Shown in pieces: positions 18,851-47,469 of a stretch of DNA of 64,000 nucleotides (the first letter of the stretch is position 1; the number at the start of each line of letters is the position of its first letter). The notes under the pieces were generated by a model, which was not told the DNA's origin, did no database searches, and was given only the letters and a program-made list of their open reading frames with translations. A program made the position numbers and the translations under genes. Source of the DNA: a virus (lineage: Duplodnaviria; Caudoviricetes); the IMG/VR virus record IMGVR_UViG_3300020112_000918, positions 69,796 through 133,795 of that record; one strand, 5' to 3'.

Positions 18851-19600
18851 TTAGTGCATTACAACCAGAGGTTTACGTGCTTTCCATTTATCTTTTAAGA
18901 TGTCCTGATCTATCTGATCAGCTCTTGAGATAAATGCTGAGCCGTCGGCTGTAACTCCTGTATTTGGGTCTGTCTGATTTCGGATTCCTCCGATAAAACG
19001 TAAAGCGTACATCTTTGCTATGTCAATTACGTCAGATTCATGCTCAAAACGAACCTTACTCCAATCTCTTGAGAACTTAGCCCAGTTGATTACTAAGTTT
19101 CCCTGGATGTTCGAGTATCCCCAGAATCTTCGGTTTTCAATGTCAATGTTAAAGTTTCCAGCTTTCGATAAGTTTATGTAACTCTGACTTTCAGCGTATT
19201 CTGAAATTCGTAAAGCTGTTGTCTGATAAGGATCTCTACCATAGGGAGTTCTTCCATAAGAACGAGAAGAACTAAACTTGCGAGTAATTGTTTCATTTAT
19301 AAACGGATTTTTGCCGAGTTTAGTCCCGTTCTGTAACGTAGCCACACGTGCCATAGCAACGTTGAAAACGTCATCATCAGGGAACTCAATGTCTACGTTT
19401 CCTACGATAGGATATTCTTTTTTGAGAATAAGAGGATAGTAGCCCCAGTAAAGTCTAAGTGCTGGGACTAACGCAAGATTAATGAGTCTTTCTTTAGAAA
19501 GACCCAAATCTTCTAATTCAAGGATAGGCACACCCAAGTCGGATGCTACCTGATCCACAATAATGTCTGGAATATTAAATTCGCCTACTGAAAAGTTCAT
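18851..19600 (-). CDS. neck protein (gp13-like)
   Basis: LGVPILELE, ALRLY, C-terminal IGGIR...G.T.DG....A pattern. Confidence 0.6.
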   Translation of the reverse strand: MNFSVGEFNIPDIIVDQVASDLGVPILELEDLGLSKERLINLALVPALRLYWGYYPLILKKEYPIVGNVDIEFPDDDVFNVAMARVATLQNGTKLGKNPFINETITRKFSSSRSYGRTPYGRDPYQTTALRISEYAESQSYINLSKAGNFNIDIENRRFWGYSNIQGNLVINWAKFSRDWSKVRFEHESDVIDIAKMYALRFIGGIRNQTDPNTGVTADGSAFISRADQIDQDILKDKWKARKPLVVMH

Positions 19601-36555: not shown

Positions 36556-36571
36556 AAACTAAATAGGAAAA

Positions 36572-40819: not shown

Positions 40820-41001
40820 TAGTTATCTCCCTGAAACAATTCATCTACATGCCAGTAGCGAATTCCTTTGGGGATGCTTGTTCCGTCTTCGATGTGCTGT
40901 TTAATTTCTTCTGCAGAAAGTCCAAAAAACTTTTCTGCTTCTTCCAGGGAAAGACGCTTACCCTCGAACTCGTTCCATGCTACAATCATAAAATTCTCCA
41001 T
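40819..41001 (-). CDS. hypothetical protein
   Basis: 60 aa, TAATG-coupled to the deaminase gene. Confidence 0.5.
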   Translation of the reverse strand: MENFMIVAWNEFEGKRLSLEEAEKFFGLSAEEIKQHIEDGTSIPKGIRYWHVDELFQGDN

Positions 41002-41488
41002 TTCGTTTTTTATAAATCTTCTGATTAGATGACCCTCTGAGCTTCAAGGAAGAACTGCATAGATCTTTCTGAAAAGGACCATCTATAAGAACATCGGTCA
41101 GCTTAAGAATCTCGGTTATAAAAAGTTTGTCTTTTCTTCTGTGAGTTAATTCCTCAAGCTGGAATCCTGTCCACAAATAGACCTTAGTATCCGGAAGTTT
41201 AAACTTAATATAGGTTAATAAAGAGTGAACCAGAGATATGTTCTGTTCACACATCGGTTCACCCCCTAAAATAGAAAGATTTCTTTTAATTCCATCTTTA
41301 TTCAAGGCTGCCAAAATCTGTTCCTTAAAGTCTGGAGGAAGTTTCTTACCTCCGTTGTAGTCCCAAGTTTGTGGATTATGGCAACCCGGACAACGGAATG
41401 GGCATCCCTGTACCCAGAATGATACAGAGATTCCATCGTCGCTGTCTACAAAATCATTTTCAATAATTCCAGCGTAGCGGTTATTCAT
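40958..41488 (-). CDS. nrdG: anaerobic ribonucleotide reductase activase
   Basis: GCPFRCPGCHNPQTW, LGGEP, DVLIDGPF, RGSSNQ. Confidence 0.95.
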   Translation of the reverse strand: MNNRYAGIIENDFVDSDDGISVSFWVQGCPFRCPGCHNPQTWDYNGGKKLPPDFKEQILAALNKDGIKRNLSILGGEPMCEQNISLVHSLLTYIKFKLPDTKVYLWTGFQLEELTHRRKDKLFITEILKLTDVLIDGPFQKDLCSSSLKLRGSSNQKIYKKRNGEFYDCSMERVRG

Positions 41489-42080
41489 TGTTATATCCTT
41501 CAGTCTTCCACCCCGTCAATTCATCTGAGTGCTTATGACGATCGTTAGACTCCTTACGTTTTCCTTCATTAAAATACTGAAGGAAGGAACCTGTTAAGTA
41601 TCCTGTTACACGACGAAGTCTTTCAATAAATCCTGTAAGGACACGCTTAATCACATTTCCCTTTTCGTCCTTTTCTTCAGTAAACTCTTTTGCTCCGCAG
41701 TTAGGACAAGTATCTCCTTCAATTACTCCTTGATAACCGCAGTTCATACAAGTATCAATAGGAACATTGATAGCAAAATAAGGAATATCGTGAGCCATAG
41801 CGTAGTCAACTATCTGCTGAACAGCTTTTACATTATGGCGAGCATTTTCATCCAGCTCTACATAAGTGATACACCCCGCAGATGAAAAGCCTGTAAGTTT
41901 ACTTTCAATATCGATTTTCTGGAAGGGACTTAGTTCCTTCCAAACAGGAACGTGCATTGAGTTTGTAAAGTAACCTCTTTCTACGAGTTTTCCTTTCTCG
42001 TTACGATAAGCTGTTACGTTCTCAATAAGACCATACTTAGCTACGAACTTTTTGTAAGCTGTGAAACAAAGATTCTCTGC
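41481..42080 (-). CDS. nrdD: NrdD C-terminal fragment, exon 2 (glycyl-radical domain)
   Basis: AENLC, YFTNSMHVPV, CMNC...CPNC, RRVTGYL. Confidence 0.92.
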   Translation of the reverse strand, partial: AENLCFTAYKKFVAKYGLIENVTAYRNEKGKLVERGYFTNSMHVPVWKELSPFQKIDIESKLTGFSSAGCITYVELDENARHNVKAVQQIVDYAMAHDIPYFAINVPIDTCMNCGYQGVIEGDTCPNCGAKEFTEEKDEKGNVIKRVLTGFIERLRRVTGYLTGSFLQYFNEGKRKESNDRHKHSDELTGWKTEGYNNE

Positions 42081-42372
42081 CAAAACTCCACTGATTTTCA
42101 CCAGCAGTCAGACTATATTTTCAACTTCTATTTCTGTCACCAAAATAAAAGTGCCTCTCATTTCCAGCTGTTAAGCTGTACTCTACTCATTTATTCACTC
42201 AAGTCTTTCTCTTGAGCTATACTTTCGATAGTCGTTAGAGACATCCTCAATGAGGACTTCCTACGGGGTTAGCTTGCCTTTCAGTTTAGCCTTTCTTATC
42301 AGATTATTACTCTTCGCCCGTTTAGAGAGGGATTTTCATTTACTGTCACCAGTAAAGCACCCACTAGAATCT
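42081..42372 (-). mobile_element. group I intron (292 nt, no ORF)
   Basis: 5' exon ends ACACCU and pairs with intron GGGUG (U.G); R element CTAACGACTATC; S element AAATATAGTCTGAC; terminal G; splicing restores YYTP|AENLC in frame. Confidence 0.9.
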
Positions 42373-42465
42373 AGGTGTGTAATATACGCCAAAATTTAAT
42401 CGATGTGCGGATTTTTCTCGTAGCTTCTTATAAGCTAAGTCGTACTCCTTCTTTAAGTTCTCCAT
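42373..42465 (-). CDS. nrdD: NrdD C-terminal fragment, exon 1 (31 codons; not in the ORF track)
   Basis: AAGGAGG SD, then MENLKKEYDLAYKKLREKSAHRLNFGVYYTP. Confidence 0.85.
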
Positions 42466-43324
42466 TTAGTATTATCCTCCTTAGAGTTTCTTTTATAGAG
42501 TCTTGATTTGCTAACCAAGAGCTCTCTTTTATCCGAATAAGAAAAATTCCTTTTTCTTCACAGATTTTATCCTTTTCTTTATCTCGTTCTAAAGATTCTG
42601 GCAAATTATGCCAGTAGTCCCCATCATATTCCACTGCTATTTTTAATTCCGGTAAATATAAATCAAGCTCCATCGGAAAAATTGCAGCATGATCTGTGTG
42701 TTTAACAGAAGAGTAAAAAGATTTCACATACTCGTAAACCTCTATTTCCCCTTTAGAAAAATGAAAAGGTTCCACCAAATGACAAGGAGCATCTACTCCA
42801 TATCGTTGTTTTAAAGTTTTCATGGCTTTTTCCCTTACTGTCTTATTCTGAAAAGGATTTTCTACTCCATACTTCTCTAGATTTACTTGTTTAATCTTTT
42901 CTTTAATAGCACTGCTTTGAAAAGGATTCTCCACACCGTACTTCTTTAAGCAAGTTTCCTTAAATTTCTGAATTCCCCTTTCACTTAAAGCTCCATTTGC
43001 CACACCATATCTCTTCAAATTTGTGCTCTCATTTTTTAATCTCACAGAAGAATCTAGTTGAGTACATCGACAAGAACAGTGTAAATTATAGCCTTTTCTT
43101 GCATTAATAAAAGACTTTATAGGTCCTTTACAGATCGGACACTCAGGATAGTCTTTTAAATTGAATTTTAACCAATAAACTTTTTCTGCTAAAGTTGCTG
43201 GATTTTCAGGAAATTCTTTTTCTAAAGCCTTGATTAAATTCTCTTTACAAGATAAGCGTGCCTGCCACCCAAACGTAGAGGACTCAAATATACTAAGAAT
43301 ATCAGTTTTCACAGTGTTTTCCAT
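42428..43324 (-). CDS. free-standing homing endonuclease (Vsr/DUF559-like PD-(D/E)XK domain, KYGVENP repeats)
   Basis: CPIC...CSCRC, about four KYGVENPFQ-type repeats, ELDLYLPELKIAVEYDGDYWH. Confidence 0.85.
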   Translation of the reverse strand: MENTVKTDILSIFESSTFGWQARLSCKENLIKALEKEFPENPATLAEKVYWLKFNLKDYPECPICKGPIKSFINARKGYNLHCSCRCTQLDSSVRLKNESTNLKRYGVANGALSERGIQKFKETCLKKYGVENPFQSSAIKEKIKQVNLEKYGVENPFQNKTVREKAMKTLKQRYGVDAPCHLVEPFHFSKGEIEVYEYVKSFYSSVKHTDHAAIFPMELDLYLPELKIAVEYDGDYWHNLPESLERDKEKDKICEEKGIFLIRIKESSWLANQDSIKETLRRIILNGELKEGVRLSL

Positions 43325-43340
43325 ACAGAAATAGGGGTAC

Positions 43341-46300
43341 TTAAATTCTCTGCTGGGGTACAGAGTTTACATAATTCTGAATCTCAGTAAGTTCATTATC
43401 TGATAGTGGTCTCCGATACTTTTCTTCTAAAGAAAGACGCATTTCTTTTATAATGGCTTCCTTCGTCGGCTCAGCATAATGAACTTGTTCTTTGTAAGCA
43501 TCACACTTTTCTTTAAAAAGAGTTTCTATACGAATAGCAAGATTCATACCCTTTTCTTCTGTATGGTCACATCCTATAAGGATCTGAAGACACTCTGCTA
43601 AGCCTAACTGTCCAATAGCTAAAGTTCCGTGCTTAAGGGCTGAACGAATTCCTTCTTCTGGAACATAACCTTTCATAGTATTGTTCTGATACATAAACTT
43701 TGCAGAGTTTGGACTCTGAGAAGCAATCCACTCAAAGCGTTCAATAAGAGCGTCTTTTGTTTCGTCTATGTATTTTTCAAGCAGCTTCATAAACACGTCT
43801 ACTACAGCATCTGGATCAGATTTACTCTTCTTCTTAGCAAGCATAGCTACTGTTGGAAGAATGATGGTCTGCGGAGCAATATTTCCTCTTCCATCTCTCT
43901 GCATTGCTGAGCAAAGATAACTATCAGGAACGTCGCCTGTTTCCAGAATCTTTGTAAGCAAATCCAAAAAGTATTCTTTAGAAAAGTTGATATCGTAACC
44001 GTTATTTGTACGGCAATTATGCATAATGATATCAGAGCCAATGAAAGTTCCTGTCTCGGTTCCAATATCATAAGAGTCTACTGGCTCCCAGTGCCAGCTA
44101 ATATCCTCTACTTTTAGACGCAAACCATCTGCTCTGGATAGGAAATCTCCTACTTTTAGGTCTGCTGCTTTAGTAAAAGTCTCTCCCGTCCAAAGAGGGT
44201 GGTCTTCTGTACAAGAAAGACAATAGTGTTTTCCTTGTTCTTCGTAATAGATATGCATCATAAGCGGAGTGTTCAGCTTATCATTTTTGAAAACGTGGCG
44301 TACTTTAACCCATCGATTTTCTCTATCTAAAACTTTTATGTCTTCAGAAGATAAGTCAATTAAGTCCTGAGCAACTGAAGTATCGTGCTGAAATTGAGGA
44401 CGTTTATAAACTTTCTGTCCCTTAACAGTAATAGTCTTAAAGTATTTCTGAGAAGTGCCCTTAAAATTTACGTTAGGAATAGTTTCAATAAACCGTTTTT
44501 CTTCTGCTTCATAGTCTTCTGTATAAAGAAGAACTTCGAATATGTAGTGGGATAAATCTGAGTCACCGAAAGAAATTCCTGCGTCTAAACTTCCTTTAGT
44601 GCGAATATTTCCCCTATGCTCTGTAAGTCTTCGATTTACGTCTTTGCTACTTCCGATATAAGTTACATCTTCAGGAAGATAAGTAATTGCGTAGACTCCT
44701 GCTCCTACTTTTATCCCAGATTTGTGCTGTACCTTTTTATTTCCTGGAATTCTTAACTCTTCTTTATTGAAGAAAACCTTACAAGGTCGTGCTCTTAAAA
44801 CTCCAGTTTTACAGTATTCGTAAAAATCTTTTATAGAGATATCGTAAATACCTTGAGGAAGTTTTACGTACAGATGTTCTTTTCCGTCCAAAGCTCCCAT
44901 TGTAGAAAAGTCTTCTGTTGGCTGAACCTTTTCAGTAACAATAAGTTCCTCATTGTTTACTTCTACGTTAATCTTTTGTCCGATATCAGGATGCTTTTTG
45001 AAAATCTTTACAAGACCTTCGTAGTTTTCTGGAGAAAGGGTTCTGATAACTTCTTTCTTCAAAGCACGATCTTTTTTAATTCCCTCTGACTGAACTGACC
45101 AGTTACAGTTTGCATAGTTCGGATAAAGACGACGAACTGTAGAGTTAAGAGCCTTTTGATAAAATTCGTAATTAGGAGTTCCTTCCTTACCGTTCACATA
45201 TTTATCATACTGAAAAATCTGACAAGGGAAAATAGAAGTTCTTCCATATTTTCCTATACCAAGAATTGATGCACGATAAAAAGTCTCATTAAGAAGTTTT
45301 CCCTCTGGAGAAGTGTTTTTACCAAAGTTAATAGAAGAGAAAGGCAACTGATCCCCACTTCTTGAGAGTAGAGTGTTCAGATTGTGGTAAAGACCTTCGG
45401 CAGCCTGTTTTGTTTCAATGATAGTATCCAGCAAAGCACTCTGATACCATTTGCGACTAATTTTCTGAATTGTTCTACTTCCGAAATAGAAGTCGTCAAA
45501 AGACACATTCCAGTTTTTGAGGAATACCTCTTTATTATCCTGGAGCCACTCTTCAAAGGCATTTCTTACAATGCCGAAATCATCGACATAATCGTCAAGC
45601 ACAAGCTGTAAAAGGTTGAGACTTTTGAAGCTCTTTGAATCTTTAAGGGAAGCAATAATAAAATGCTTCATAAACGATTTTCTTACATAAATCTCAAGAG
45701 TGAAGTCCAGATGAGTGCAAGATACGCCCCCAAACTGCTGTAAAGACTGTGTCTGAACAAGAACTTGAATAAGCTGTTCTGCAGAAGAAATACTTCCAGC
45801 TGGACGGCAGTCTGAATTCTTTACAGTGAATCCGTTTGCTAAAGACTGATCTACAGGAAGACTTAAACAGTTATGTTCTCCAACACACCACTCAGACAAG
45901 TCATGCTCATAGGAAATATTGTCTCTGTGATTTTTTGCTGCCTTAGGTGATATGTAGTAATTCAGAGCAATTTCTTTATTAAGGGAGGAAGCTGCTTCAT
46001 TGTTTCTTCCCCCAAAAGATTCCTCATCTACATTCGCATTCTGGCGTTCATTTTTCTTCGCATCCAGCTTTTCACGATAGTTAGTAATCTCGTCTGTTGC
46101 TCCAAGACGTTCCCGATCTCTACGAGAACGGAATTCAATGTAGCTGCGAGCTACGTCATGCAGTTCTGCTCCCATAAGAGCGTTTTCCACGATTTTGTGA
46201 ATACCTGCAATTTTTATAGGCTTTGTGTCAGACCTTCTGTCTTCTAAACCAAGCCAAACCAATTTCATTACTCTCGCAACGTCTTCGTCGGAAAGTTTAC

Positions 46301-46397
46301 TCTCTGGAACTGTAGAACTTGCTGCTTTCTTGATTGCATTTACAATCTTCGCTTCATCAAAATCCACAATTCGTCCATCTCTTTTCTTTATAGTCAT
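43341..46397 (-). CDS. nrdD: NrdD N-terminal fragment (ATP cone) containing an intein
   Basis: IKKRDGRIVDFD ATP cone, HNCL, QFGG, PFSSINFG, TSIFP, MG|CRT, GRGNI, GQLGLAECL. Confidence 0.93.
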   Translation of the reverse strand: MTIKKRDGRIVDFDEAKIVNAIKKAASSTVPESKLSDEDVARVMKLVWLGLEDRRSDTKPIKIAGIHKIVENALMGAELHDVARSYIEFRSRRDRERLGATDEITNYREKLDAKKNERQNANVDEESFGGRNNEAASSLNKEIALNYYISPKAAKNHRDNISYEHDLSEWCVGEHNCLSLPVDQSLANGFTVKNSDCRPAGSISSAEQLIQVLVQTQSLQQFGGVSCTHLDFTLEIYVRKSFMKHFIIASLKDSKSFKSLNLLQLVLDDYVDDFGIVRNAFEEWLQDNKEVFLKNWNVSFDDFYFGSRTIQKISRKWYQSALLDTIIETKQAAEGLYHNLNTLLSRSGDQLPFSSINFGKNTSPEGKLLNETFYRASILGIGKYGRTSIFPCQIFQYDKYVNGKEGTPNYEFYQKALNSTVRRLYPNYANCNWSVQSEGIKKDRALKKEVIRTLSPENYEGLVKIFKKHPDIGQKINVEVNNEELIVTEKVQPTEDFSTMGALDGKEHLYVKLPQGIYDISIKDFYEYCKTGVLRARPCKVFFNKEELRIPGNKKVQHKSGIKVGAGVYAITYLPEDVTYIGSSKDVNRRLTEHRGNIRTKGSLDAGISFGDSDLSHYIFEVLLYTEDYEAEEKRFIETIPNVNFKGTSQKYFKTITVKGQKVYKRPQFQHDTSVAQDLIDLSSEDIKVLDRENRWVKVRHVFKNDKLNTPLMMHIYYEEQGKHYCLSCTEDHPLWTGETFTKAADLKVGDFLSRADGLRLKVEDISWHWEPVDSYDIGTETGTFIGSDIIMHNCRTNNGYDINFSKEYFLDLLTKILETGDVPDSYLCSAMQRDGRGNIAPQTIILPTVAMLAKKKSKSDPDAVVDVFMKLLEKYIDETKDALIERFEWIASQSPNSAKFMYQNNTMKGYVPEEGIRSALKHGTLAIGQLGLAECLQILIGCDHTEEKGMNLAIRIETLFKEKCDAYKEQVHYAEPTKEAIIKEMRLSLEEKYRRPLSDNELTEIQNYVNSVPQQRI
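44016..44894 (-). mobile_element. Ala1 intein with a GIY-YIG endonuclease (293 aa)
   Basis: MG|ALDGKE...GVYAITY...YIGSSKDVNRRLTEH...CTEDHPL...SYDIGT...MHN|CRT. Confidence 0.9.
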
Positions 46398-46505
46398 TAT
46401 TTCCCTCTTTGTATAAGCTACACTAAAATAGGATTTTTACAAGAGTCCCTTACTTCATATAATTCCGAAAAAAGTAGAAAAGGGTATACTTACTCCTATT
46501 TTTGT

Positions 46506-47387: not shown

Positions 47388-47469
47388 ACTTTCTCCAAAA
47401 AGAAAGGGACTTATCCTCGTCAGAGTCAAAGTCCCTAAGAATTCGAGTTAACTAAATAGGCTAACTGTA

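Follow-up and report, generated by a model that had tools for sequence, protein, structure and literature searches.

Can a glycyl-radical enzyme be encoded from the outset as two polypeptides, and if so, what would hold the pieces together? The question is raised by nrdD, the gene for the catalytic subunit of class III ribonucleotide reductase (RNR), in a 64,000-nucleotide (nt) stretch of DNA from a Caudoviricetes virus, a gut or rumen phage. Coordinates refer to this whole stretch (the window), and all features of the split-nrdD locus lie on its minus strand. The analysis combines sequence comparison with single-chain structure models, and the relatives used are metagenomic. On this basis, the catalytic subunit of the phage class III RNR is encoded as two separate proteins, an N fragment and a C fragment. 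A sequence-only reading of the DNA had proposed such a split, caused by an endonuclease gene with no intein at the break, by analogy with nrdA of phage Aeh1. The features from which the answer is built are, in the order of translation:

43341..46397, minus strand: open reading frame (ORF) of the nrdD N fragment, a 1018-residue precursor with ATP-cone, NrdD barrel part with the catalytic Cys loop, intein, tail and stop (ORF, Pfam and structure alignment)
43479..43550, minus strand: final native helix of NrdD in the N fragment, with KEQVH at its end, corresponding to T4 NrdD up to about residue 435 (alignment and fold)
43344..43478, minus strand: tail of 45 residues with no counterpart in contiguous NrdD, predicted helix-turn-helix (profile, alignment and model)
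42428..43324, minus strand: predicted free-standing homing endonuclease gene, 298 residues, with DUF7487 repeats and a Vsr-like/MTES_1575 nuclease domain carrying the motif EYDGDYWH (Pfam, PDB and PHROGs)
42476..42482, minus strand: Shine-Dalgarno sequence AAGGAGG of the C fragment, lying within the endonuclease ORF near its 3' end (sequence)
42400..42465, minus strand: ATG and 22-residue leader of the C fragment, resembling the native helix that precedes LNFG and kept in seven lineages (alignment)
42373..42399, minus strand: native NrdD strand LNFGVYYTP, end of a 31-codon exon (alignment)
42081..42372, minus strand: group I intron of 292 nt without an ORF, at the junction TP/AE, with U.G pairing at its 5' splice site and G as its last base (RF00028 and compensatory changes)
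41481..42080, minus strand: last nrdD exon, 199 codons plus stop, with barrel strand, zinc ribbon and the glycyl-radical motif RVTGY (Pfam and sequence)

By sequence family and by fold, the phage protein is a class III NrdD. PF13597 (NRDD) matches the N fragment with 225.6 bits and exon 3 with 137.1 bits, and the hallmarks of the enzyme are all present: glycyl-radical motif, zinc ribbon, catalytic Cys loop and an adjacent gene for the activase NrdG. They are distributed over two chains. The Cys of MG/CRT is carried by the N fragment, and RVTGY and the CxxC...CxxC ribbon are carried by exon 3, where PF01228 also matches. Projected onto the fold, the N fragment comprises the ATP-cone, most of the ten-stranded barrel and the Cys loop, and the C fragment two barrel strands, the zinc ribbon and the glycyl-radical loop. 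Homology to NrdD ends at KEQVH (His codon 43481-43479); the frame then runs through the tail to a stop codon at 43343-43341, and 16 bases past this stop the endonuclease ORF begins. As in genes in pieces, the two same-strand ORFs sum to a contiguous homologue; an endonuclease ORF separates them, and the break has no self-splicing element. The sequence-only reading thus described the locus correctly in the homology break with tail and stop, the complete endonuclease gene, the restart at ATG 42465 within the endonuclease 3' end, the separation of active-site Cys and glycyl-radical loop on different polypeptides, and the likeness to Aeh1 NrdA with its mobE gene.

Its account of the restart needs one amendment. 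Nine nt separate AAGGAGG from ATG 42465, which also lies within the endonuclease ORF, and the claimed leader before LNFGVYYTP is there, but the frame terminates immediately after this strand and NrdD (AENLC...) picks up only 292 nt further on, at 42080. Since the frame continues only past a group I intron, the C fragment consists of 31 + 199 codons (230 residues) and requires RNA splicing. Group I introns are recognized by a P1-P9 core, a U.G pair at the 5' splice site and a terminal G. Here, the last base of the 5' exon is U, paired with G in P1, and the last intron base is G. The full-length match of the element to RF00028 reaches 34.6 bits (E 2e-7 in a small search, below the gathering score of 50); it was seen only when a 381-nt stretch was searched alone and was missed by Rfam over the whole 12-kb region. 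Homologous introns occupy TP/AE in three relatives (L085, L140 and L144), with 87% identity by column between far more diverged flanking exons, and compensatory double changes occur in 22 of the 75 predicted pairs. By these comparative signs the 292-nt element is a genuine group I intron. A 973-nt insertion at the same site in another relative (L020:2901-3873) is probably a larger variant of the intron with an ORF.

The split was then followed through related phages. nrdD is contiguous at the break site in all 80 closest viral relatives, and contiguous relatives read ...K-x-x-Y-(K/H) LNFGVYYTP AENLC across it. One of the 80 is L001, which is 84% identical to the window and has a contiguous nrdD without intein, endonuclease or intron. 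Endonuclease homologues (44-46% identity) stand at exactly the same nrdD position in L084 and L085, together with homologous tails and leaders, and L140-142, L143 and L145 show the same split with a homologous endonuclease. L084 carries the split with neither intein nor intron, and L144 carries it without any endonuclease, its tail and stop being followed by 39 nt and then by a leader-bearing mini-exon. With tail, leader, stop and restart all kept in L144, the split there persists after loss of its presumed cause.

A profile of the last native helix plus tail was searched against 1.84 billion representative proteins. About a dozen matches extend through the tail, and all 12 inspected are N fragments or pieces with the same tail. 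In total, 14 tails were aligned, that of the window and 13 from further N-fragment sequences, drawn from clusters below 50% identity. Their consensus, T-x3-I-x3-M ... R-x-L ... E-I-x2-I-x2-Y, can be read as a pair of amphipathic helices plus a capping turn. Contigs of tail-bearing relatives, from pig gut and other metagenomes, show the N fragment, a DUF7487/MTES_1575 endonuclease and a mini-exon of 33-39 codons; those of L140-142 reach further and include the intron and the last exon. The restart is equally constant: in seven of seven lineages read, a Shine-Dalgarno-like motif lies 7-14 nt before an in-frame ATG, followed by a related leader. The endonuclease residues encoded across GGAGG differ, Arg-Arg in two lineages against Glu-Glu in another, and yet GGAGG is retained, which suggests selection on the RNA signal; Shine-Dalgarno sites are used for most genes of this phage. 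Judged from these contigs and proteins, no fewer than a dozen phage lineages have the two-piece design, one of them lacking the endonuclease.

GenBank phages returned no match to the locus by megablast and none to the helix-plus-tail piece by tblastn, and a cultured phage with the same split did not turn up among them. In the closest cultured relative, Thomasclavelia phage TR-TP1, nrdD is contiguous at this site and is split elsewhere by an HNH gene. Together with the use of Shine-Dalgarno sites, this relative hints at a Firmicutes host.

Structure comparison places the break in a defined part of the fold. The phmmer alignment to Prevotella copri (P. copri) NrdD stops at its residue 575, and an AlphaFold2 (AF2) model of the L084 N fragment can be superposed on T4 NrdD as far as residue 435 and on its P. 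copri counterpart as far as residues 570-571 (Z 22-24). In these models, the break would fall at about residues 435/436 of T4 NrdD, in a surface loop that joins the final helix of the N part to the strand LNFGVYYTP. This loop accepts insertions in other phages (L035; P0002, P0003, P0008, P0010, P0029), so that the two chain ends are expected to be adjacent in the fold. The L084 model has the NrdD fold, with the tail as two helices and a block-mean predicted local distance difference test (pLDDT) score of 73-85 over residues 651-680. Modeled alone, the C fragment reaches a pLDDT of 51, a value that says little on the leader beyond "helix"; such a poor solo fold is expected if a partner is needed and fits obligate complementation.

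Two further features enter the proposed maturation of the enzyme:

44016..44894, minus strand: intein of 293 residues at MG/CRT, with a GIY-YIG domain; not at the break (Pfam and sequence)
40958..41488, minus strand: nrdG activase gene, overlapping the nrdD stop by 8 nt (ORF and Pfam)

The intein begins with Ala and ends with HN, followed by Cys at +1 (MG/A...HN/CRT). Pfam finds ATP-cone, NRDD, GIY-YIG and a weak Hint signal on the N-fragment ORF, the latter two both belonging to the intein (PF01541, GIY-YIG, 26.4 bits). No intein is present at MG/CRT in L001 and L084, and L085 has a shorter one without the GIY-YIG domain.

The reading that we favor, with a probability of roughly 0.7, is a two-polypeptide class III RNR that assembles non-covalently, with tail and leader likely forming a helical clasp. 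Upstream, translation would run 45 codons past the native end into the helix-turn-helix tail and then stop; downstream, the Shine-Dalgarno sequence and ATG in the endonuclease 3' end would restart it with the helical leader. Protein splicing would remove the intein, leaving an N fragment of ~725 residues, RNA splicing would remove the 292-nt intron from the message of the C fragment, and the 230-residue C fragment would dock onto the N fragment. NrdG, translationally coupled to the C fragment, would then install the radical. Tail and leader would leave the body at one loop, and their most likely arrangement is a small clasp, packed against each other or against the body, that stabilizes the complex. 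Expression of both pieces, their assembly, enzyme activity and the clasp role of the additions are what we infer from the sequences. That both polypeptides are made and pair into an active enzyme is favored indirectly by the constancy of the restart signals and by the survival of the split in L144, which has no endonuclease. Some observations weigh against this account. Between the window and two short close relatives (L146, L147), the tail differs by 2-3 synonymous versus 4-7 replacement codons, no clear synonymous excess in numbers too small to interpret. The tails of the window and L085 lack significant pairwise similarity, which appears only via the family profile. Finally, the closest relative, L001, does without the whole arrangement, so that the split is dispensable for function.

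That the break is an intron or an intein is very unlikely. An intron would place the endonuclease inside a second self-splicing element, group I or other, whose removal from about 43479 to about 42399 would yield a contiguous NrdD; splicing of this kind had been named beforehand as the outcome that would speak against the split. The last base of the His codon is indeed U, group I introns with Vsr-like endonucleases exist (PMC2677866), the T4 nrdD intron contains an endonuclease (PMC2988022), and covariance models can miss introns with large ORF insertions. However, a covariance search with RF00028 over 43530-42374 detected no group I element even with E values up to 10 allowed, and the same tool detects the true intron 93 nt downstream. 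The interval 43478-42400 ends in A rather than G before LNFG, and both of its flanks are coding: the 5' 135 nt encode a peptide conserved as protein, and the 3' end holds the conserved Shine-Dalgarno sequence, in-frame ATG and leader. The neighboring element 42372-42081 has the match and the terminal G that this interval lacks. In L144, the 39 nt between stop and restart cannot accommodate an intron. With no group I signal, conservation of tail and leader at the protein level, a kept Shine-Dalgarno sequence and ATG, and L144, RNA splicing across the endonuclease gene is very unlikely, and we give this explanation hardly any weight. Even less credible is a degenerate or atypical split intein whose halves, the tail and the leader, would ligate the pieces by protein trans-splicing, an idea suggested by the typical position of Vsr-like endonucleases between split-intein halves (PMC2677866). 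On the N fragment, Pfam reports a single Hint-type match, PT-HINT at residues 714-778, which stays below the cut-off and belongs to the intein, well away from the tail; a PHROGs search of the tail gave no match. The first tail residue varies by lineage (Tyr, Lys, Cys, Ser, Thr, Ala, Gln or Val), the residue following the leader is Leu instead of Cys, Ser or Thr, and there is no terminal Asn or His-Asn. Moreover, the 45- and 22-residue pieces are predicted to be fully helical, unlike the beta-rich Hint fold. With no split-intein halves at this site, covalent rejoining is not expected. The sequence-only claim of "no intein" thus stands for the break, where neither an intein motif nor a junction nucleophile is found, but not for the gene, whose N fragment contains an intein elsewhere.

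If the pieces stay separate, the large native barrel interface might still suffice for their assembly, the tail being read-through that came with the endonuclease, the leader a leftover duplicate that supplies a start codon, and neither of them playing a part in docking. The pieces of Aeh1 NrdA assemble, and the account of them in PMC2988022 describes no docking addition; the resemblance of the leader to the native helix and the substitution pattern of the tail noted above point the same way. We nevertheless regard this simpler assembly as rather unlikely, because the 14 aligned tails keep their hydrophobic and capping pattern across clusters below 50% identity, the tail is modeled as an ordered helix-turn-helix, and L144 retains both additions after loss of the endonuclease. 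It is also improbable that the split nrdD is a decaying, non-functional gene that has become a home for selfish elements. Three such elements (intein, endonuclease and intron) do reside in it, and degenerating RNR genes are on record in some phages (PMC3653736). Yet all ORFs are intact, Cys loop, zinc ribbon and RVTGY are kept, nrdG is retained with its overlap of the nrdD stop, intron pairings are maintained by compensatory changes, and the two-piece design persists in many diverged lineages, one of them without the endonuclease.

The two additions appear to differ in origin. Leaders align with the native helix preceding LNFG, including the conserved Met of this helix, which corresponds to the start codon. 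For the L085 leader, the native helix is the best local match in 27 of 53 contiguous NrdDs, and it is the commonest position for the other two leaders as well; permutation p values are mixed, ranging from <0.001 to 0.95 by pair. We therefore hold with moderate confidence that the leader is a diverged duplicate of a helix that the N fragment has also kept. A derivation of the tail from the NrdD segment beyond the break, as a degenerate copy, found no support, as the best local matches of the tail scatter over the protein, and neither the local-match scan of contiguous NrdDs nor the fold comparison detected a source for the tail within NrdD. A quick tree of the N-terminal part unites 36 contiguous relatives in one clade, with the split forms outside on long branches and L001 as sister to the window, so that two changes of state suffice. 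This being a quick version with relatives picked by similarity, we take from it no more than an old age of the split and polymorphism of the cassette among close relatives.

The gene in the break probably belongs to the Vsr-like or EDxHD homing endonucleases, the family of I-Bth0305I, which phage records name Hef-like. PF24308 scores 63.4 bits, above its cut-off, and PF18741 37.9 bits against a cut-off of 38.2. The protein matches phrog_3339 "homing endonuclease" (1e-35), its tblastn matches are annotated as Hef-like homing endonucleases of T4-like phages, and the sole PDB sequence match is I-Bth0305I (3R3P), a weak one at E 0.02. EYDGDYWH is unchanged across three homologues. A distant paralogue (29-38% identity over parts, within a 528-residue open frame) lies outside the window in the same genome (G000:C1:47923-48570). 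In L145, a 605-residue protein with DUF7487/MTES_1575 domains is encoded directly upstream of the split nrdD (L145:20-1837), besides the 299-residue copy inside nrdD. The start of the endonuclease gene is unusual in one respect:

43329..43335, minus strand: CCTATTT motif 5 nt ahead of the endonuclease ATG, which has no Shine-Dalgarno sequence; candidate promoter or leaderless-start signal (motif count)

CCTATTT occurs at 22 sites in the window versus 11 expected, and 21 of the 22 are on the coding (minus) strand (examples are 43329-43335, 36561-36567, 46426-46432 and 47454-47460). It stands 5-6 nt before ATGs that have no Shine-Dalgarno sequence, namely those of the endonuclease (43324), a terminase piece (36555) and ORFs at 19600, 14336, 10744, 8417 and 4211; most other genes of the window have a clear Shine-Dalgarno sequence. 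The distribution suggests a second class of gene starts, perhaps a promoter for leaderless mRNAs.

More speculatively, tail, stop, endonuclease, ribosome-binding site, start codon and leader could form one self-contained mobile cassette, giving homing endonucleases a third way of living inside an essential gene besides introns and inteins. Such a cassette would rejoin neither RNA nor protein; it would supply a translational stop and restart of its own and two docking helices by which the host fragments stay together. The C fragment would be co-translated with NrdG and maybe transcribed from the CCTATTT of the endonuclease, so that it could even serve as a replaceable cartridge after oxygen damage, in the manner of YfiD. 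We put this forward as a tentative extension that may well prove wrong.

Other phage nrdD genes are interrupted elsewhere. A search for short C-terminal NrdD fragments retrieved 4,884 proteins; among those listed, most are interrupted elsewhere in the gene or truncated where a contig ends, and P0001, of the L084 type, is the only one with the same leader. Several C-terminal fragments (P0002, P0003, P0009, P0015, P0023, P0044, P0077, P0080) start at or just before QLGLAE, some with read-through sequence in front. This start, ~45 residues upstream of the break, marks a second frequent interruption site in phage nrdD. In three further relatives, an in-frame TAG replaces the Glu codon of PAENLC (L034:3789-3803, L044:5692-5706, L058:759-773), and the rest of the translated downstream stretch is open to the gene end. 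As some NrdDs have Gln at this Glu position (P0014, P0037), these phages may read TAG as Gln.

If the two-piece enzyme is active, it would be a glycyl-radical enzyme designed with its radical-storing glycine on one chain and its thiyl cysteine on another. The relatives provide natural controls, an intact gene in L001, a split without intein or intron in L084 and a split without endonuclease in L144, which makes the question of fragment pairing directly testable. In practice, gene callers and annotation pipelines will list such nrdD genes as fragments or pseudogenes.

The fracture of genes by homing endonucleases without intein or intron is already known. To our knowledge, few essential genes split in this way have been described, and gene 43 of phage 25 is reportedly another endonuclease-fractured gene without intein or intron. 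The case named by the sequence-only reading is the class I RNR of Aeh1, where nrdA-a, mobE and nrdA-b form genes in pieces (Friedrich et al. 2007, as summarized in PMC2988022 and PMC2677866). In these summaries, as in the phage nrdD, a free-standing endonuclease gene splits the RNR catalytic subunit into two ORFs of the same operon, with no intron or intein at the break and with function by non-covalent assembly, which for the phage NrdD is the predicted outcome. The differences, as far as those summaries go, are that Aeh1 pairs a class I enzyme with an HNH endonuclease and the present phage a class III glycyl-radical enzyme with a Vsr-like/Hef-like one, that both nrdD pieces bear conserved extra peptides which occur in many lineages and survive endonuclease loss, and that radical site and thiyl Cys are on separate chains. 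How such pieces find each other is named as an open structure-function question in a review of T4 mobile elements (PMC2988022).

An even closer precedent may be an SbcD-like gene fractured by a Vsr-like endonuclease without an intein, with a 25-residue tail and a 9-residue leader (Dassa et al. 2009, PMC2677866). It shares with nrdD the predicted endonuclease family between the halves, the lack of a split intein and extra residues that are absent from contiguous homologues. However, it concerns another host gene at a single metagenomic locus without conservation data, whereas the nrdD extras are longer (45 + 22 residues), form a conserved family and include a leader like a native-helix duplicate. 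The split-intein fractured genes of the same study also share the order N part, free-standing endonuclease, C part, the phage setting and the predicted endonuclease family; the nrdD break differs in having no split-intein halves. Split phage nrdD genes are themselves on record, mostly ascribed to introns or inteins (PMC3653736). In the Jug gut phages, nrdD is divided into several pieces by introns, inteins and endonuclease genes, and one junction has no evidence of RNA splicing (PMC12880540). That junction is noted in a figure legend only, with position, added peptides and conservation unanalyzed there, and the predicted hosts are Bacteroides or Phocaeicola (PMC12880540), whereas the present phage uses Shine-Dalgarno sites throughout.

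Within the literature compared, we found no glycyl-radical enzyme encoded in two pieces; the closest case is the repair of cleaved pyruvate formate-lyase (PFL) by YfiD (GrcA), which supplies the glycyl-radical domain in trans as a "spare part" (PMC8683613). In both systems this domain is on a separate small polypeptide, which binds the enzyme body and supports catalysis in PFL and is predicted to do so in NrdD, and which duplicates, in NrdD probably, an element retained by the large piece. Together with Aeh1 NrdA, YfiD is a precedent for enzymes that function in pieces. YfiD repairs an oxygen-cleaved one-piece enzyme, whereas the phage NrdD is two-piece as its encoded default, and its C fragment also holds barrel strands and the zinc ribbon. 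Compared with these systems, and as far as sequences allow, four things are new: the splitting of a class III RNR with radical glycine and thiyl cysteine on different chains, conserved add-on peptides that are recognizable as a family, a split that persists after endonuclease loss, and the dependence of a single gene on protein splicing, RNA splicing and the assembly of its fragments.

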